Positions 6,567 to 33,188 of a stretch of DNA of 33,188 nt are shown here, in pieces. Where the stretch lies: positions 1-33,188 of IMG/VR virus record IMGVR_UViG_3300012953_007088; one strand, given 5' to 3'. The stretch is from a virus (taxonomy: Duplodnaviria; Caudoviricetes). The translations under genes were made by a program, and so were the position numbers. How positions within the stretch are numbered: the first letter of the stretch is position 1; each line of letters begins with the position of its first letter. The notes under the pieces were generated by a model. That model was not told the DNA's origin, did not search any database, and was given only the letters and a program-made list of their open reading frames with translations.

Positions 6567-7505
6567 CTATATCGTACTATTTTTAATCTTAAAGTCAATT
6601 AAGTACTTTTCTAGTTCGTAAGTGGGTGACCAATTTAAAATTTCCTTAGCTTTAGAGTTGTCAGCTAATGTGGCTCTAGCTTCTCCTTGTCTTTCCGGTA
6701 TAAACTCTATTTTTTTGCTTATCTTTTCAGCTATACTCAGTATAGAAAAAGATTTCCCAGTTCCTATGTTAAATATTTCGCCAAATGCTTTATCATTCTC
6801 ACAAGACGCGCTTAGTATATTAGCTTCAACAACATCTCTTACGTCGGTGAAATCTCTAGTCTGCAAGCCATCGCCAACCACTGTAAGAAGTTCTCCTTGT
6901 AAAAATTGTCTTTGGAAAAGGCCAATAACCGGAGCGTAGTGTCCTTTTATTGGTTCCCTGTTTCCGTAGACATTAAAATATCTAAGGGTTATTGTGTTTA
7001 ACCCGTATATGTCATTGTATACTTTGCAAATCTCTTCTCCAGCGGTTTTGGATACCGAGTATGGGTTTAGGCAATCCTTGGGCATATCCTCCTTCAAAGG
7101 GGGGACGTTTTTTCTGCCATAAGCAGAAGATGTAGATGAGTATATAACTCTGTCTACATTATTCTCTCTACTGGCCTGAAGTACGTTGCACGTTCCTACA
7201 AAATTGGTGCTACATGCTATCTGGGGTTGGTTTATAGTTGGTTGTATTCTGGCTTCTGCTGCTAAGTGAAATACAACATCTGGCTTCTCGTGTGAGAAAA
7301 TCCAATTCAATGTGTAGGAATCATTTACGTCAGTACAATAATTCCTAGCTTCTTCGTTCCAGTAAAATTTTTCGTTACAGTCTGCTGATTCATTATCCAA
7401 GCAAACGACGTTAACCCTCATGCTAATGAGCTTATTCACTAGGTTGCTTCCTATGAACCCTGCTCCTCCTGTTACTAGAGCGGTGGTTGAGCTATTTAAA
7501 ATCAT
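6567..7505 (-). CDS. NAD-dependent nucleotide-sugar epimerase/dehydratase (extended SDR)
   Basis: VTGGAGFIGS, FHLAA, SSTSSAYG, PYSVSK (YxxxK), LRYFNVYG, GDGLQTRDF; ATGA overlap with dnaE core. Confidence 0.93.
   Translation of the reverse strand: MILNSSTTALVTGGAGFIGSNLVNKLISMRVNVVCLDNESADCNEKFYWNEEARNYCTDVNDSYTLNWIFSHEKPDVVFHLAAEARIQPTINQPQIACSTNFVGTCNVLQASRENNVDRVIYSSTSSAYGRKNVPPLKEDMPKDCLNPYSVSKTAGEEICKVYNDIYGLNTITLRYFNVYGNREPIKGHYAPVIGLFQRQFLQGELLTVVGDGLQTRDFTDVRDVVEANILSASCENDKAFGEIFNIGTGKSFSILSIAEKISKKIEFIPERQGEARATLADNSKAKEILNWSPTYELEKYLIDFKIKNSTI
6571..6598 (-). promoter_or_regulatory. Sigma70-like promoter, probably leaderless
   Basis: TTGACT-16 nt-TACGAT, 6 nt before the ATG at 6564. 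Confidence 0.5.
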
Positions 7506-10066
7506 TTTTTTAATTCAGACAGCTTGGAGTATATTTTCGTGTTTTGAATCGAGATAGAGTCCGCGAAGACAACTTCATCTTGTTTCGTGCCAGAAACTAT
7601 AACTATGTCGTTCTCTTTTGGTAAGACACCGTTTTCTTCCTTACATATCTCTAGTTTCTTTGAGAAAATCATAGTCTTAGTTGTTCCGGTTTCGTCTGAG
7701 CAAAAAGTCATTAAGTATTTATTACCATTCCTGCTTCTGCTTTGGACTACTTTGTCTCCAATATAAGAAATGAATTTTACTCTAGTTCCTGCGACCATCT
7801 CGTTTATTTGTCGAACAGTATTTAGGTTGCGCGTGGTGTTTGAGAAACAATCTCTCAAGGTACGATTGTAGGTATAGCCTAGCAGGTTCTTTTCGTAGTA
7901 CCAATTTGCAAAGCTTTCTGATTTTCTGTTTTGAGCGTAAATGTCTTTGTACCCTTTCGCTTTTTTCTTGATAGTTTCCATTCTGCTTTCCTTGATGACT
8001 GGCTTAGCTTCTTTTGCGGTTTTGGCTTTCACCATCGTCTGGGAGAGGTGGGTGATTATCCTAACTAAATCAAAGTCAAACTCTTCTCCTTTCTCGAGTA
8101 CTAGGGTTTTTTCCCTTTGAGTGAGTATGTTCCACACTTGAGCTTCGTAAGCGACTTTCGTTCTACTCTGTTTAAATCCTTCTAAAGCACCAGCTTGTAT
8201 TAGTGCGCTAAGGATTCCTATGGGGATTTCGCAGTGATTAGCTGCTTCGAATATTTGAAATTTGTTTGTGTACTCTCCTTTGAAGTTCATTAACTTGTCC
8301 AAGGATTTGTCTGAAATGCCCTTGATTGATAATAAGCCGAACCTTATATCGTTGCCCTCAATACTGAAATCTGTTTTTGATTTAATTAAATGGGGCGGTA
8401 ACATTTTAATCCCAAAGTAATCCATTTCCTTGTGTATTTTGGAGATTTCAGAAATTGGGTCAGGTTCGTGCCTAGACATCTTTAGTAAACTTAAGAAAAA
8501 CTCTTTTGGGTGCTTGAATTTTAAGTAAACTGTCGCAGCAGCTAGTGCTGCGTAGGAGATAGAGTGTGATTTATTGAATGAGTAATTTGCTGAGTCCTCC
8601 AAAACTCTCCATAGAACATCTCCAACTTTTTTAGCTAGATTGTTTTCCGCGACTTTATCTTTAATTTTTTTCTTCCACTTTCTAACTTCTGAAACTTTCT
8701 TTTTACCCACAATTCTTCTGAGAATCTCGGCTTCATCAAGGGTGAAGCCAATTTTGTGAGCCATTTTCATTAACTGTTCTTGGTACAAAGCAACGCCACC
8801 AGTGGATGATAGAATGTCGTCAAAGAAAGGTTCAACGACTTCCTTCTCTCCATTGTTTGTGTACTCCGCGTACTGGTCTACAAAAGCTAAAGCACCGGGA
8901 CGAGCCAACGCTAAAACAGCACTTAGTTCATCCAAGTCTTTAGGCTTAACTTTCTGACAAACTCTGAAGTTTGTGTCGGCCTCGATTTGGAAAAGGCCAT
9001 GCGGTGTTCTGAGGTACTGTAGGTTTTCGTAAATTATTTCGTCGTTAAAATCTATTTCGTGAGCTTTTATGCCGACCTGCTTACAGACATCATCAACCAC
9101 TGATACGGCCCTGAGTCCAAGTATGTCCAGCTTTACATTGAAGATAGACACCCAATTCATATCGTAAGAGGATACGAAGCCGTCTTTTTTCGATGTGAGT
9201 TCTGTCGGGTAAGACTCCTCCATGTTTCCGTAGGAAATCGATATGGCGGACGGGTGAACACCCTTATTTTTAACTAAGTTACTTATTTTGAGAGCCACTT
9301 TGTAGCAGTCTTCATTCTCGTCGCACCAAGATTTGAAGTCTGCAACTTCATCATAGGCTTCTTCCAGCGTCTTAACTTGGCCAAAAACTTTGGGTATCAT
9401 CGCTGAAATCATATTCATTTCTGATTCAGTTTTTCCTCCTACGATTTTACCAGCCTCTTTAATGCAAAGCTTACCTGTAAACGTATTGAGGGTTAAGATT
9501 TTAGATGTTCTGCCGTGGTATTTTTCTTCTAAATATTTAATTACTTTATGCCGATTGTGGTAACATATATCCATATCAACATCACACATTAAGGCCCCGT
9601 CTAAGTACGTAACTCCATCGACCACTTTTTTCTTAGCGCGAACTTTCGAGACAAATCTTTCAAAGAATAATTCATGTTTAACTGGGTCTATTTTCGTTAC
9701 TCCCAGCAGGAAAAGAACTATACTTCCAGCAGCACTCCCTCTTCCTAATCCAATTGGTACATCTTCTCTTTCACAGAATTTAACTACATCCCAAACCATT
9801 AGTATGTAGTCGATAAAACCTAATTCCTTTAAAGTGTCTAGTTCGTATTTAATTCTTTCGCAGTACTTTTTGTAGAGTGGGCTATCTTTTTCTAATTGAA
9901 GCGATTCAAATTTTTCTAAACAAGCATACCGCAGAAAATTAAAATTATTAAACTCCCCTTTTAGCTGACTCTTATTTACGTAATCTTTGGAAACCTCAAA
10001 CCTAGGCAGTCTTACGCCGTGTATCTCTAGGTCTATTTCTTCAAAGTTTTTCGAGAAGTTATTCAT
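7502..10066 (-). CDS. dnaE: DNA polymerase III alpha (family C) catalytic core, lacking the PHP domain
   Basis: GRGSAAGS, FERF, DVDMD (catalytic), KLDILGL, GLFQIE, RPG, YQEQLM, YSFNKSHSISYA, IRFGLLSIKGI and C-terminal OB fold. Confidence 0.95.
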   Translation of the reverse strand: MNNFSKNFEEIDLEIHGVRLPRFEVSKDYVNKSQLKGEFNNFNFLRYACLEKFESLQLEKDSPLYKKYCERIKYELDTLKELGFIDYILMVWDVVKFCEREDVPIGLGRGSAAGSIVLFLLGVTKIDPVKHELFFERFVSKVRAKKKVVDGVTYLDGALMCDVDMDICYHNRHKVIKYLEEKYHGRTSKILTLNTFTGKLCIKEAGKIVGGKTESEMNMISAMIPKVFGQVKTLEEAYDEVADFKSWCDENEDCYKVALKISNLVKNKGVHPSAISISYGNMEESYPTELTSKKDGFVSSYDMNWVSIFNVKLDILGLRAVSVVDDVCKQVGIKAHEIDFNDEIIYENLQYLRTPHGLFQIEADTNFRVCQKVKPKDLDELSAVLALARPGALAFVDQYAEYTNNGEKEVVEPFFDDILSSTGGVALYQEQLMKMAHKIGFTLDEAEILRRIVGKKKVSEVRKWKKKIKDKVAENNLAKKVGDVLWRVLEDSANYSFNKSHSISYAALAAATVYLKFKHPKEFFLSLLKMSRHEPDPISEISKIHKEMDYFGIKMLPPHLIKSKTDFSIEGNDIRFGLLSIKGISDKSLDKLMNFKGEYTNKFQIFEAANHCEIPIGILSALIQAGALEGFKQSRTKVAYEAQVWNILTQREKTLVLEKGEEFDFDLVRIITHLSQTMVKAKTAKEAKPVIKESRMETIKKKAKGYKDIYAQNRKSESFANWYYEKNLLGYTYNRTLRDCFSNTTRNLNTVRQINEMVAGTRVKFISYIGDKVVQSRSRNGNKYLMTFCSDETGTTKTMIFSKKLEICKEENGVLPKENDIVIVSGTKQDEVVFADSISIQNTKIYSKLSELKK

Positions 10067-10719
10067 AGGTCAATCTGATATTTTATTTTATCCCAAACTT
10101 TAATATTGAGTTCTAAGTCTACTAAGGCGTCGTGAAGCTTGTCGTAGTCATGTTCTATTCCGAATTCTTGCCCCATAGCTTTTAGGTTAGTCTTAACTCC
10201 TCTAACTCTCCGGTTATTCATGCAGTATTGATACTCCATTAAGCTTGAGTTTTTATCGTACTTAAAGTTGGTTTTAACGCCACGAGCTAAAGCGTTGGTA
10301 TCTAATATTTTCGGCACTAAATGTTTGTAGCAAAGATTGAAGTGCTTATAAAGTTCTTTTATTAAATATAAATCAAAACCTAATACATTATGGCCAACTA
10401 TGTAGTCTGACTTGTCCAACCAATCTCTTATAGTGGCGAAGACTTCCTCTGGCTTTTTTCCCAGCTTGTCCAACTTCTCTTGGGAAAATCTAGTTATCCT
10501 AGCAGCATCGTCGCTTATTTTAAGATTAGTATCCCATTTAATTAAAAAGTCTCTGGAATCAGAGACTTCTGAGTCGGGTCCAGATTTTCCGTTTTGGCAC
10601 TTTATCATGGCAATCTGCCAAGGGAGGTTGTGACAAGAGTTCAGACATAGATTAAGCGTTTCGCAGTCTATAAAGACATAAACGCTTTTCTTGTCGTACC
10701 TTAAAAGTCTATCGTTCAT
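10063..10719 (-). CDS. DEDDh 3'-5' exonuclease (DnaQ/PolC-type proofreading domain)
   Basis: FIDCETL (Exo I), VGHNVLGFD (Exo II), LHDALVD (Exo III). Confidence 0.9.
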   Translation of the reverse strand: MNDRLLRYDKKSVYVFIDCETLNLCLNSCHNLPWQIAMIKCQNGKSGPDSEVSDSRDFLIKWDTNLKISDDAARITRFSQEKLDKLGKKPEEVFATIRDWLDKSDYIVGHNVLGFDLYLIKELYKHFNLCYKHLVPKILDTNALARGVKTNFKYDKNSSLMEYQYCMNNRRVRGVKTNLKAMGQEFGIEHDYDKLHDALVDLELNIKVWDKIKYQIDL

Positions 10720-11465
10720 TCGGGCAAAGCCTCCCAGCAGAATTCGTTGCTACTCATGTGTTCTAAGTTTGGTTTATCTAAGGAGCTTCTTGAGTTGATG
10801 CACCTAAATGATAAGTAGGACTTGAAGTCTTCCTTGTTTTTGTAAAAAACGCTTTTTACTTTCAAGAGTTCATCTTCTGGTTTTGCGTAGTTTTTAATTG
10901 CGTTCTCGATAAGATAATTGAAAGGTAGGTCGTTCTCTTCAATCATGAAGACTGGGTTGCAGAAAGATAAATCTGGCACACAAGATTTACAGTTTAGCGT
11001 GTTTTCGTGTATGAAAGAATCGTAAAAAGGTATGCCAACCACGATATCTTCAGGGGAGTACAGTTGCTTAATCGAGGGGTAGTCAAGTCTTGGCGTGTAA
11101 TAAAACCCTTCTATGCTGGCCTTCGTGTATAACTTGATTAGCTTCTTGTATCCTTCTTTGTTTTTAGCGAATAGGATAAGTTTCGAGGTCCCCTGAATGG
11201 ACTCGTCGTCTTTTTGATTTAAGTCGGGACAGACGTTAATTCTGAGGCCAAAGATGAATTTAATTTTATTTTCGCGACAGTTTTCGTAAGCCTCCAGAAA
11301 CCCACTCATATTGTCGTCTACCAAGTAGAGTTCTTTGAGTTTATTGTCTACGCAGATGTCTATTATTGAGTCTGGGCCAGTGCTTGGTTCAGGAGAGCGT
11401 TTGTTGAGCGTTAAAATAGATTTACCTAAGCTATAGTGAGATTTAAACAAAGGTATGGTATCCAT
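10716..11465 (-). CDS. Stand-alone PHP domain of DNA polymerase III alpha
   Basis: KSHYSLGKSIL, LVDDNMSGFLE, IKFIFG, LILFAKNKEGYKKLIKL...GFYYTPRLD match the DnaE N-terminus. Confidence 0.9.
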   Translation of the reverse strand: MDTIPLFKSHYSLGKSILTLNKRSPEPSTGPDSIIDICVDNKLKELYLVDDNMSGFLEAYENCRENKIKFIFGLRINVCPDLNQKDDESIQGTSKLILFAKNKEGYKKLIKLYTKASIEGFYYTPRLDYPSIKQLYSPEDIVVGIPFYDSFIHENTLNCKSCVPDLSFCNPVFMIEENDLPFNYLIENAIKNYAKPEDELLKVKSVFYKNKEDFKSYLSFRCINSRSSLDKPNLEHMSSNEFCWEALPE

Positions 11466-27353: not shown

Positions 27354-28178
27354 TCAAGGCGAGGAAAAAGCTTCGCACATTTTTTTAAGTTCAGAAGTGT
27401 CTGGCGGAAATCCAAGTCTTCCGTAGTGGCTTAAACTTATTTCTGGGTCGAGCCATATTTTGCCTCCGATATCAGTCCATCTTTTGCAAAAAGTATAATC
27501 TTCAGAGAGGTAGTGGTTATCTTCTGTATCATCATGGCAGGTATCAAAAAGACTGTAAAGGTTCTCTCTGCATCTTTGTATGCCTTCTGGGGATTCATGC
27601 CCAGTCCTCAGGAGACCCCTATCTATGTCCGTGGTGTAATGTAATTCAGGGTGAGCTTTTTGCAGTTCCCGTATAACTTTCCTGTTTATACACATAAAGC
27701 CAGTGCCGGAATTCTTAACTGGATACACTGTCTGTGACTCAGAGACAACTGAAGGGGTAACACCTTCTAATGCGTTAACAACATAACGCTGTTTATTGCC
27801 ATCAGCCTGTTGAGGGAGCATTTTTAGCGGGTAAGCCCCTACCGATACACCTTTATTACAAGTAATCAATCTAAGTAAATGAGACGGATGCCACTCTATA
27901 TCTCCATCAATAAAAACTAAATGGGTAGCCTCGCTCGCCATAAAGAACGAGCATAAATGATTTCTACCTCTCGTTATAAGGCTTTCTCCTCCTATGAATC
28001 TGACTTCACACTTTATTCCGTTATTATGTAAGAAAAATACGCTTGAAAGGAGAGACATTACATACTCTTGCATCATGTTACCGCCGTAACAGGGCGTAGC
28101 TATATAGAGCCTTACGTCTTTAAGTTCTTCGTTGGATAAAGCAATTGAATTTTGGTCGTTTAAGACATCTAAGTCCAT
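27354..28178 (-). CDS. GT-A fold (GT2-like) phage glycosyltransferase
   Basis: IATPCYGG, ESLITRGRN, LVFIDGDI, GTGFMCI, YLSEDYTFCKRW..IGGKIWLDP..L.H.G; ATG at 28178 preferred because the one at 28187 lies within the -10 box. Confidence 0.8.
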   Translation of the reverse strand: MDLDVLNDQNSIALSNEELKDVRLYIATPCYGGNMMQEYVMSLLSSVFFLHNNGIKCEVRFIGGESLITRGRNHLCSFFMASEATHLVFIDGDIEWHPSHLLRLITCNKGVSVGAYPLKMLPQQADGNKQRYVVNALEGVTPSVVSESQTVYPVKNSGTGFMCINRKVIRELQKAHPELHYTTDIDRGLLRTGHESPEGIQRCRENLYSLFDTCHDDTEDNHYLSEDYTFCKRWTDIGGKIWLDPEISLSHYGRLGFPPDTSELKKMCEAFSSP

Positions 28179-28185
28179 AATCAGC

Positions 28186-28214
28186 ATAATGCACTTTACT
28201 TGTTAGGAGGTCAA
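28186..28214 (-). promoter_or_regulatory. Sigma70-like promoter, probably leaderless
   Basis: TTGACC-17 nt-CATTAT, 7 nt before the ATG at 28178. Confidence 0.55.
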
Positions 28215-28246
28215 GGATGGTGTGTTAATTTTTCTTCTAGAAGTAT

Positions 28247-28277
28247 ACAACACCCCCCAAGAAGGGGGAAGTGTTGT
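28247..28277 (-). terminator. Strong hairpin closing the structured element (terminator-like)
   Basis: ACAACAC-ttCCCC...GGGG-GTGTTGT; only a weak U-tract follows. Confidence 0.45.
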
Positions 28278-28591
28278 TAAGCGTGTGCTGCTTTTTCTCC
28301 TTAGCCCAGTGTTTTTGACATGGATGGGTCATTCCACAACACGCTGCAAATCAGTTTAAAACTGAACCTAACTACCTTTCAGGCGGGAGAGACTGTACCA
28401 CAGAAAACTCCTCTTACATTAGGTCACCTAGCTTTCGCTAACGATGGGGTCACACCTTGGTAATCAACCAAGTGTCTTTTGATTACATGCAGTTTGCAAT
28501 CGGTCATCCCTTGATTCAGAGGTAGACTAGCCTCCACTCCTACTTTACTTCAGATATCTCAGGGAAACTCCACTGATTACTCCCAGCGAGC
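28247..28591 (-). ncRNA. Candidate large structured non-coding RNA, family unknown
   Basis: Only long non-coding gap in the window; at least eight stems including a GAAA tetraloop, a multibranch junction and G-U pairs that favour the minus strand. Confidence 0.6.
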
Positions 28592-29026
28592 TTAACTCAA
28601 AAGTTCGTCAGCATCATCAGTCTTTTCTTTGTCTCCGTCAAGAAGGAATGTAGCCATCAATGCCAATGTCCTTAAATCCTTAACTCTTAAATCTAATGCG
28701 TTTACATCATTATCAAAAGTTTCAGTTTTCGCGCAGAACTGATTAATGCTGCTGGCGATAAGATTTGCGGTTTCCAAGTCTATCTCCATATCTTGAGACA
28801 TTGATTGGAGGGATTTGTTTAAAATGAAGTATTCATTACCAGAAACTTCCTCTCGGCTAATAACCTTATGCTCCTCCATTTGATTTAAAGCAGCCCTTAT
28901 AGCTGCTAATTCAGCATCTTCATCTTCGGAGATCAGAAGAACCTTTGAGACGTCCTTGCTGAGAACGAATACGTCGTTATCTTTATAGTACTTTAAAAGC
29001 TCTTCGGTTGCCTCGCATACGGTCAT
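28592..29026 (-). CDS. Hypothetical acidic protein, possible winged-helix N-terminal half
   Basis: AAIRAALNQMEEHKVISREEVSGNEYFIL helix-wing pattern; AGGAG upstream. Confidence 0.65.
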   Translation of the reverse strand: MTVCEATEELLKYYKDNDVFVLSKDVSKVLLISEDEDAELAAIRAALNQMEEHKVISREEVSGNEYFILNKSLQSMSQDMEIDLETANLIASSINQFCAKTETFDNDVNALDLRVKDLRTLALMATFLLDGDKEKTDDADELLS

Positions 29027-29119: not shown

Positions 29120-29362
29120 ATGGATACAGAAATCTCAGAAAAATCAAAAAGAGGACGAAAGCCAATTAAGGTTTCATGGCCAGAAGGCGAATTTACCGCC
29201 CAAGACTTCCTAAAGTTAAACGATGGCCGTATGTCTAGGGCCAGTGCTCACAGCAAAATTAACCAAGCGGTAGACTTCGGTAAAGTAAACTTAATCCGCA
29301 AAGAAAACCCCGCTATTGGTAGACCTATAAATATTTACAGAGTTAACACAAAATCCGCTTAG
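29120..29362 (+). CDS. Small basic winged-helix DNA-binding protein
   Basis: KRGRKP, FTAQDF..MSRASAHSKINQAV..GKV...GRPINIY. Confidence 0.6.
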   Translation: MDTEISEKSKRGRKPIKVSWPEGEFTAQDFLKLNDGRMSRASAHSKINQAVDFGKVNLIRKENPAIGRPINIYRVNTKSA

Positions 29363-32699: not shown

Positions 32700-32976
32700 G
32701 CAACAAGAACTAGACGCAATTCAACTCAAATCCACCAAAACAGAAGTCATGGAAGCTAATAAATCCATACTCGGTCAACCTGTCTGGGTGACGCTTCCTG
32801 CTCACATGACTGACTACCTCCCTTGGAGGGGGACCGTCACTAAGGTAGTTGACGAAGAGTATTTCATGGTAAAACCTTTTGGTAAAAACCGAAAAGAGGA
32901 GTCGGTGAGTATGTATAATATTCGGTCTGTCACCAAAAAACCCAAGCAGACCTCTAGTGCCAAGCTGCGAGTATAG
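32692..32976 (+). CDS. Hypothetical protein (small beta-barrel-like)
   Basis: AGGAG Shine-Dalgarno; LGQPVWV..WRGTVTKVVDEEYFMVK; the last 10 nt overlap tRNA-Gly. Confidence 0.6.
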   Translation: MNKQQELDAIQLKSTKTEVMEANKSILGQPVWVTLPAHMTDYLPWRGTVTKVVDEEYFMVKPFGKNRKEESVSMYNIRSVTKKPKQTSSAKLRV

Positions 32977-33042
32977 CTCAATCGGTAGAGCATCTGCTTG
33001 CCATGCAGAAGGTTGTCGGTTCGAAGCCGACTACTCGCTCCA
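32967..33042 (+). tRNA. tRNA-Gly (GCC)
   Basis: Acceptor GCGAGTA/TACTCGC, anticodon arm TCTGC-TTGCCAT-GCAGA, T arm GTCGG-TTCGAAG-CCGAC, discriminator T plus encoded CCA. Confidence 0.95.
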
Positions 33043-33046
33043 ATTT

Positions 33047-33123
33047 GGACAAGTAGCTCAATTGGATAGAGCATCTGCCTTCTAAGCAGAGGGTTCTGGG
33101 TTCGAGTCCCAGCTTGTCTACCA
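33047..33123 (+). tRNA. tRNA-Arg (TCT)
   Basis: Acceptor GGACAAG/CTTGTCT, anticodon arm TCTGC-CTTCTAA-GCAGA, T arm CTGGG-TTCGAGT-CCCAG, encoded CCA. Confidence 0.95.
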
Positions 33124-33126
33124 ATT

Positions 33127-33188
33127 TGACCCGTAGCTTAATTGGTTAAAGCAGCGAACTCATAATTCGTTGAGTCAGGGTTCGAGTC
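33127..33188 (+). tRNA. tRNA with CAT anticodon (elongator Met or Ile2), 3'-truncated by the window edge
   Basis: D arm GCTT..AAGC, anticodon arm GCGAA-CTCATAA-TTCGT, GGTTCGAGTC; lacks the initiator GGG/CCC stem. Confidence 0.85.

Follow-up and report, generated by a model that had tools for sequence, protein, structure and literature searches.

A conserved ~390-nt non-coding element of large uncultured phages, with a fold held by compensatory changes and a purine-rich repeat that changes in concert

Large pseudoknot-rich RNAs of bacteria and phages are, to our knowledge, rare, the few that are understood being catalysts or molecular machines, and we know of no explanation yet for ROOL, GOLLD, and raiA. 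Similar lengths and a similar richness in pseudoknots are found in tmRNA, in the RNase P RNA, whose hallmarks are a helix closing the 5' end on the 3' end and the conserved motifs of the P4 pseudoknot, and in the group I intron, recognized by an invariant G-C pair and a bulge in P7, by the order of P3 and P7, and by the gene that it interrupts. Decoys of the CsrB/6S type are stand-alone RNAs with a repeated purine-rich motif and are proposed to titrate a protein. Ornate phage RNAs that remain unassigned have precedents (PMC5737381; 10.1101/2024.12.08.627333). In the available portions of these sources, ROOL averages 581 nt, contains six junctions, and lies near tRNAs (Weinberg 2017, PMC5737381), GOLLD exceeds 800 nt, and the loop pairings of ROOL and GOLLD found by covariation proved to be intermolecular (10.1101/2024.12.08.627333).

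The element described here was found in a window of 33,188 nt, the whole stretch of DNA analysed (IMG/VR record IMGVR_UViG_3300012953_007088), which is a 33-kb piece, 20% complete, of a large uncultured phage encoding a split DNA polymerase III, a helicase, a primase, a RecA-like protein, a ribonucleotide reductase, sugar-modifying genes, and tRNAs. The DNA polymerase III alpha subunit is distributed over separate PHP, exonuclease, and catalytic genes (7502-11465, minus strand), and the tRNA cluster (32967-33188, plus strand) comprises Gly, Arg, and a third tRNA truncated by the window end. Since the polymerase is at most ~31% identical to GenBank phages among the tblastn matches listed, and since blastn of the gap region against 50,697 GenBank phages returned zero matches, this phage group is seemingly absent from the GenBank phage set. 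A skew analysis of the window gave only the gene-strand signal. As the first-pass annotation had pointed out, there is a single long gap, of 404 nt (28188-28591), the next-longest between the 40 called ORFs being 94 nt, and it is less AT-rich than its surroundings (GC 46% versus 39% for the window). It is preceded by the gene of a 144-aa protein (28592..29026, minus strand) and followed by a phrog_1574 gene (27354..28187, minus strand), which lies outside the element and has its own promoter-like site at 28214-28186. Replication and nucleotide-metabolism genes form the block downstream, with kinase, sigma-like, and SSB-like genes also present there in relatives.

Homologues were collected from several anchors. 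Starting from the neighbouring 80-aa gene, three syntenic phages were identified in which the gap is 78-88% identical and the upstream protein 33-73% identical, the RNA still being 78-81% identical where that protein is only 33-35% identical. Pattern scans recovered true loci in 8 of 26 cases, then in 26 of 70 (metagenomes), 13 of 13, and 22 of 24, while a scan with a single 14-mer returned mostly chance matches (3 genuine loci out of 120) and the upstream-protein alignment was too divergent for a locus scan. A further scan, anchored on a glycosyltransferase gene and blind to the RNA, retained 80 of 294 loci, 23 of them carrying the RNA. After removal of duplicates, of three partial copies, and of one locus without a hairpin arm (L179), the final set contains 46 distinct sequences, which are 49-99% identical to the window copy and fall into 20 lineages below 80% identity, with element lengths of 353-459 nt. 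These searches were of the sequence-profile type and may miss remote members, and some invariant alignment columns are imposed by the search patterns themselves. A weak scan of a genome collection with one exact pattern gave one chance match and no cellular copy. Natural variants include the loss of most of P2a/P2b (L254:2358-2632), a 16-nt insertion within the P5a loop (L168:724-1058), and a long insertion in the P2 domain (L337:3798-4225); in L179 (2236-2870), the last hairpin has no 5' arm and the 3' segment is duplicated, which may be an assembly artefact.

The first-pass annotation had proposed a highly structured RNA at 28247..28591 on the minus strand, and all the stems that it listed are present at the positions given. 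Exceptional stability was not observed: the minus strand folds with an MFE z-score of -0.89, 22 of 100 shuffles folding equally well, and the plus strand with a z-score of -1.73 relative to dinucleotide shuffles. Single-sequence folding appears uninformative more broadly, with z-scores of -0.5 to -3.5 in the 12 of the 20 lineages tested. The folding energy of the window copy, which the proposal had itself named as a possible refutation, is thus no better than that of dinucleotide shuffles, but this result is overridden by covariation: the window copy alone would be dismissed, and a structured RNA is accepted because the 46 homologues covary.

For this analysis, 34 homologues were aligned from sequence only, and 88 pairs were named by means of RNAalifold, an exhaustive helix scan, and inspection. 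In this alignment 93.2% of the cells are paired, and two-sided change is seen in 50 of the 88 pairs (270 cells), as against 29.7 pairs and 75.5 cells in a column-shuffle control that ignores relatedness (0 of 500 shuffles reaching the observed values) and 12-21 pairs and 33-51 cells when the partner strands are slid. In 13 protein-anchored sequences outside the alignment, which had been inspected beforehand, 75.6% of the cells are paired versus 33-51% after sliding. Pseudoknot 2, P3b, P4, P5, and P5a are kept there at 93-100%, and the lower pairing of P2 (42%), P2a (54%), P3a (49%), and P6 (56%) is partly due to register slips in variable domains. Conservation at 97% or more concerns 47 columns among the 46 sequences, and a conserved ORF was looked for in the homologues and not found. 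The helix pairs of the 46 sequences contain 304 G-U cells and 111 A-C cells, which designates the minus strand as the selected one, in line with the strand first proposed. The locus is therefore a conserved phage non-coding element of ~390 nt whose fold is held by compensatory changes, and it is almost certainly a real structured RNA under selection.

The limits proposed at first were too narrow, as conservation extends from ~28606 to 28217. The whole element is accordingly placed at 28217..28606 on the minus strand, the 5' end being deduced from promoter spacing and the 3' end corresponding either to the last hairpin at 28247 or to the second copy of the repeat described below. A sigma-70-type promoter-like site (28613..28641, minus strand), with a -35 box at 28641-28636 and a weak -10 box at 28618-28613, is located within the last codons of the upstream ORF. 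In 38 of the 46 sequences and 16 of the 20 lineages, the box TTGA[CT] precedes the core by 38-60 nt (shuffles: mean 0.96, maximum 5), lying inside the upstream ORF in some homologues and past its stop in others, and is followed ~17 nt further by a -10-like hexamer in most of them; four lineages are devoid of the -35 box. Judging from promoter spacing, transcription would start near 28606, and a stand-alone transcript made from its own sigma-70-type promoter is likely. A short AAAAGG..CCUUUU hairpin is found at the predicted start in most homologues (e.g., L270:3885-3903), with a weak version in the window. At the other end, the last hairpin (28247..28277, minus strand), GC-rich and terminator-like, is present in all members; a clean U-tract is usually missing, at least five U in the next 8 nt being counted in 6 of the 20 lineages, a count that is sensitive to the choice of the stem end.

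From 5' to 3', the fold comprises a 5' hairpin (P1), a three-way junction (P2), a junction of P3a and P3b, P4, a second three-way junction (P5), P6, P7 arranged around an H-type pseudoknot, and the last hairpin, that is, three multi-stem junctions and three pseudoknots in total, all features being on the minus strand. P1 (28565..28593), drawn from the covariation alignment, belongs to the most sequence-conserved domain, with 14 of the 47 columns conserved at 97% or more lying within 28595-28565; overall, the invariant positions cluster in the 5' hairpin and in the linkers. The P2 junction (28509..28563), with P2a and P2b (28535-28518), is variable in divergent members, P2 being paired in 32 of 77 cells of the 13 additional sequences; its GAGG/CCUC stem shows two-sided change in 4 of 4 pairs among the 34 homologues. 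The P2a loop carries GAA..AGUA, which we take to be a bulged-G-like motif. P3a (28481..28501; GAUUGCA/UGUAAUC, two-sided change in 7 of 7 pairs) exposes in its loop the 5' strand of pseudoknot 1, in which 28492-28488 pair with 28348-28344 (28344..28492), a site 140 nt distant. All five pairs change on both sides, 95% of the cells are paired, and the duplexes reach -4.2 kcal/mol with their own partner versus -2.2 kcal/mol with permuted ones (0 of 5000). A second GCAG was considered as an alternative partner in pseudoknot 1 and dropped, not being conserved. P3b (28456..28472; CUUGGU/ACCAAG, 4 of 6 pairs two-sided) has a conserved U-A-x-x-U loop and is paired in 74 of 78 cells of the additional sequences.

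Pseudoknot 2 (28390..28477) is formed between 28477-28474 and part of the P5a loop (28393-28390), with 99% of the cells paired, two of four pairs changing on both sides, and 51 of 52 cells paired in the additional sequences. P4 (28427..28447) has an invariant CC/GG base and an optional distal GNRA hairpin (28440-28429). The P5 junction (28366..28424), closed by 28424-28418 with 28372-28366, contains P5a, P5b, and a conserved GUAA linker; its pairs change on both sides in 7 of 7 cases, in the GACCUAA/UUAGGUU register, and 85 of 91 cells are paired in the additional sequences. P6 (28351..28365; UCAGU/ACUGA) shows two-sided change in 4 of 5 pairs. P7 (28282..28343) pairs 28343-28339 with 28286-28282; two-sided change affects 2 of the 5 pairs of this CGUGU/ACACG stem, and its own pairing beats permuted pairing (3 of 5000). 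It encloses pseudoknot 3 (28305..28337), of the H type, in which 28337-28333 pair with 28324-28320 and 28328-28326 with 28307-28305 across an A-rich linker. Both stems covary, CCC/GGG becoming CUC/GAG in L238 and L250 and GGC/GCC in L280 and L337. A candidate fourth pseudoknot between the P2b loop and GCY at 28305-28303 is a lead only, being paired at 98% in the 34 homologues without two-sided change and at 62% in the 13 others. Two nearly invariant occurrences of GAGUUU, each paired to CUC, are found in the core, in P1 (28570-28565) and in P5a (28410-28404), possibly as an internal duplication or as twin binding sites. With regard to the stems first listed, most covary in the 34 homologues; the GNRA hairpin, absent from 9 of the 34, and the CUGU-ggu-ACAG hairpin, which shows two-sided change in 0 of 4 pairs and overlaps a pseudoknot, are not general, and an ACA/UGU extension at 28473-28475 is incompatible with pseudoknot 2. 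That description included neither the dedicated promoter nor any of the three pseudoknots, and it overlooked both the strongly conserved hairpin at the 5' end and the direct repeat with its concerted changes.

This repeat is a purine-rich motif of ~22 nt that flanks the last hairpin on both sides, with copies mostly 53-78 nt apart. Copy 1 (28282..28304, minus strand) provides at its 3' end the 3' strand of P7, copy 2 (28217..28240, minus strand) changes in concert with it, and the window contains no other exact match to the motif. Across the 20 lineages, the score of copy 2 against its own copy 1 is 16.4, versus 12.7 +/- 0.3 for permuted pairs (0 of 2000), and the concerted change includes the leading trinucleotide and the variable tail. 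Pairing of copy 2 with either the 5' strand of P7 or the tail of the hairpin was rejected as the cause, its own partner being no better than that of other lineages (1417 and 1953 of 5000). That the copies co-vary without preferential pairing within a lineage favours recognition by a shared partner over base pairing, the simplest reading being that one co-evolving partner recognises both; repeated gene conversion between the two copies is possible as another cause. Copy 2 persists where no co-directional gene follows, and is thus part of the element, not of the next promoter. Should transcription end at the last hairpin, this copy would lie outside the RNA and act as a DNA site. In L280:4455-4480, and likewise in L287:4480-4530 (a locus of the second element described below), the last copy of the repeat reaches up to or into the start codon of the downstream kinase. 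On the other side of the locus, and divergent from the 144-aa gene, an 80-aa protein with an RGR motif and a probable helix-turn-helix (29120-29362, plus strand) is conserved in relatives and is a candidate binder of the repeats.

The surroundings of the element are variable. The upstream gene encodes the 144-aa protein in 40 of the 46 homologues, and a dUTPase or another product in the other six. This protein, with a predicted N-terminal winged helix (pLDDT 92), gave winged-helix matches with a best E of 0.017 and none at E <= 0.001, and belongs to a family of 547 clusters; Pfam searches on 123 of its homologues gave nothing consistent, and the Atlas values of 0.80-0.85 obtained beside these searches are a lead only. 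It is best regarded as a neighbour and not as an obligate part. The next gene is usually a nucleotide kinase, or else phrog_1574, a membrane protein, or others (at least four classes), and is co-directional in 42 of 46 cases, convergent in three, and missing within 700 nt in one. Given these classes and these four exceptions, the earlier opinion that the element is not a riboswitch for the next gene holds. A phage sigma-70-region-2 protein is encoded between the kinase and SSB-like genes in many relatives (L138:2044-2649, L139:3303-3905, L140:1202-1831) and is absent there in the lineage of the window. Two near-complete relatives have no detectable copy: G002 (95% complete) contains the 144-aa gene but neither a gap nor a detectable RNA, and G001 (86% complete) shows neither that gene nor the RNA, the second element described below being also undetectable in both, so that the element may be accessory. 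As it moves among gene neighbours, the RNA appears to be neither a leader nor tied to the upstream winged-helix gene.

Another conserved non-coding stretch, of ~400 nt, was found in 20-21 other loci of the 80 anchor loci, mostly in the same place and also behind TTGAC (L281:3985-4440, L332:3660-4100, L302:3105-3545, L287:4110-4530, L299, L307, L285, L278, L339, and L294, with a variant in L310:4690-5090 and L312-L316). As judged by eye, it has adjacent helices of its own that covary and are arranged in pseudoknot order, as well as, in most members, its own concerted two-copy purine-rich motif, and most of its copies are also preceded by the 144-aa gene. None of the 80 loci carries both elements, and ~36 have neither in the DNA examined. 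Homology or circular permutation between the two types was considered and rejected, short words being shared with no profile cross-match (best E 4.5). In L299, L307, and L310-L316, both repeat copies of this second family have apparently been lost together. Rfam searches on five of its loci and on L310 gave no match.

The first element, whether in the window copy or at 17 homologous loci (13, then four more of type 1), matches no Rfam 15 family: the gathering-threshold scan of the window gave three tRNAs only, and an E-value scan of 28000-28800 gave four weak matches with E of 2-10. A literature search found no description of this RNA, most subscription papers lying outside its coverage. Together with the covariation and the lack of a conserved ORF, the absence of an Rfam match strongly supports the earlier suggestion of a novel phage non-coding RNA. 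The element displays the structural marks of ornate large non-coding RNAs, namely covarying junctions and pseudoknots and several nucleotides conserved at 97% or more, and the best reading is that of a new class, like ROOL and GOLLD in kind without being a member of either. With ROOL, as far as the available part of PMC5737381 describes it, it shares a phage-borne location, a large size, multiple junctions, three pseudoknots, and few invariant nucleotides for its length, but it differs by its ~390 nt, its three junctions, its position 4.4 kb from the tRNAs in the window and next to a kinase/sigma-like/SSB-like block, and the absence of a model match; a terminal concerted repeat is not mentioned for ROOL in that part of the source. 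With GOLLD, as portrayed in the portions at hand, it has in common an aquatic phage context and covarying long-range loop pairings; GOLLD, located near tRNAs, has a conserved 3' and a variable 5' domain, whereas the 5' hairpin is the most conserved part here and no Rfam match exists. The viral RNA candidates of Fremin 2023 (PMC10690425) were likewise mined from IMG/VR intergenic regions by covariation, but measure 29-151 nt in the part of that article available, so that the whole element cannot be among them while a fragment may be.

Neither a tRNA-like domain nor a tag ORF characteristic of tmRNA is present (ARAGORN returned none, and no ORF is conserved). RNase P RNA is set apart by the lack of a cmscan match and of a covarying 5'-3' helix among the top core helices, and the resemblance of pseudoknot 3 to P4 is not maintained among members. 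A loose likeness to the P7 strands of group I introns is seen in one helix; this assignment was rejected, the P7-like G-C pair being A-U in 4 of 34 sequences, with no bulge, an intergenic location, varying neighbours, and a different helix order and pattern of invariance. With respect to retrons, DRT, and DGR systems, the window and all 10 records searched were negative for reverse transcriptase genes; among these records one, carrying the RNA, is at least 90% complete (96%). CsrB/6S-type decoys differ in that the present element has two copies only, mostly lacks a GGA loop motif, is not rod-shaped, and has far more tertiary structure.

What the RNA does can be approached from these features, and the preferred reading, to which a probability of about 0.4 is given, is that of a trans-acting RNA serving during infection as a compact protein-binding scaffold or decoy. 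The host RNA polymerase would start near 28606 from the sigma-70-type promoter, and the RNA would fold while being transcribed, pseudoknots 1 and 2 tying it into a single particle. A protein-binding face might be formed by the junction linkers together with the invariant 5' hairpin, and the two repeat copies, brought side by side by the last hairpin, might offer two sites to one co-evolving partner, which would explain their concerted change without base pairing. This partner could be a phage or host transcription or translation factor, the RNA acting as scaffold or decoy early in infection. The repeat and the size also bring to mind a new ribozyme, a possible but rather doubtful reading, in which the repeated motif would be the place where the pseudoknotted core cleaves or rejoins RNA, copy 1 being docked within that core and copy 2 serving as a processing site for freeing the RNA from a read-through transcript or excising the last hairpin. 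The size, the three pseudoknots, and the 47 columns conserved at 97% or more fit the criteria for biochemically sophisticated RNAs given in the accessible part of PMC5737381, the poor U-tract suggests that the 3' end may need processing, and words of the P7 5' strand recur in the tail that follows the hairpin (50 of 5000); on the other hand, no Rfam ribozyme is matched, copy 2 has no preference for its own P7 5' strand, the most group-I-like helix has A-U for G-C in 4 of 34 sequences, and the invariant positions sit mainly in the 5' hairpin and linkers. Equally tentative is the corollary of a large phage ribozyme class acting at a co-evolving two-copy motif, the slot holding elsewhere a differently folded RNA of the same two-copy design. 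An RNA-only oligomer or nanocage like those of ROOL and GOLLD, with covarying long-range pairings formed between molecules, seems unlikely. Such intermolecular pairings are documented in the available part of 10.1101/2024.12.08.627333, pseudoknot 1 spans 140 nt from a hairpin loop, and the P3b loop is near-palindromic in many members, but its central self-pair is broken in 7 of 34 (by eye), the element is far shorter than ROOL or GOLLD as measured in the sources at hand, and the repeat would be left without explanation.

The remaining readings fare less well. Its own promoter, the terminator-like hairpin, and the usual co-direction of the next gene would suit a cis-acting leader, that is, an attenuator or a processive antiterminator acting on the downstream genes for a nucleotide kinase, a sigma-like factor, an SSB-like protein, and a glycosyltransferase; L280 and L270 leave no space for a second promoter, and copy 1 has two possible pairing partners, upstream in P7 and in the tail of the hairpin, the value for the latter being confounded by the hairpin arm. 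Such a leader is nonetheless distinctly unlikely, as 4 of 46 homologues have a convergent next gene, or lack one, with copy 2 still present, the identity of that gene varies, and a -35-like box comes after copy 2 in 11 of the 20 lineages. A role as replication primer RNA or as DNA-level site, with an R-loop formed through an invariant G-run and repeats working as protein-binding DNA boxes, is quite improbable: the position upstream of replication and nucleotide-metabolism genes, the conserved G-run, and two adjacent winged-helix-type genes (the second by motif only) agree with it, but the G-run is paired in a hairpin that covaries, the element changes location and escapes detection in two near-complete relatives, and no skew signal exceeds that of gene strand. 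Finally, the idea first put forward, a ribonucleoprotein with the upstream 144-aa protein, has been weakened, and such a dedicated partnership, or a mere 3' UTR, is now very improbable. The gene precedes the RNA in most homologues and most second-element copies as well; against this, the two are uncoupled in six of 46, G002 has the protein with no detectable RNA, the RNA has its own promoter, and the predicted fold of the protein, with no match at E <= 0.001, resembles DNA-binding winged helices.

Whichever of these functions applies, the element adds a compact class of RNA with unusually strong covariation, a predicted promoter, and natural deletions that mark dispensable parts. The co-evolving repeat provides a precise place to seek its activity, and at less than 400 nt the RNA is easily transcribed, probed, and imaged. 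That the same slot is filled by either of two RNAs, or by none, suggests that a widespread group of phages has an exchangeable RNA function so far unrecognised, the extent of this group being gauged from the 547 protein clusters of the neighbouring gene.
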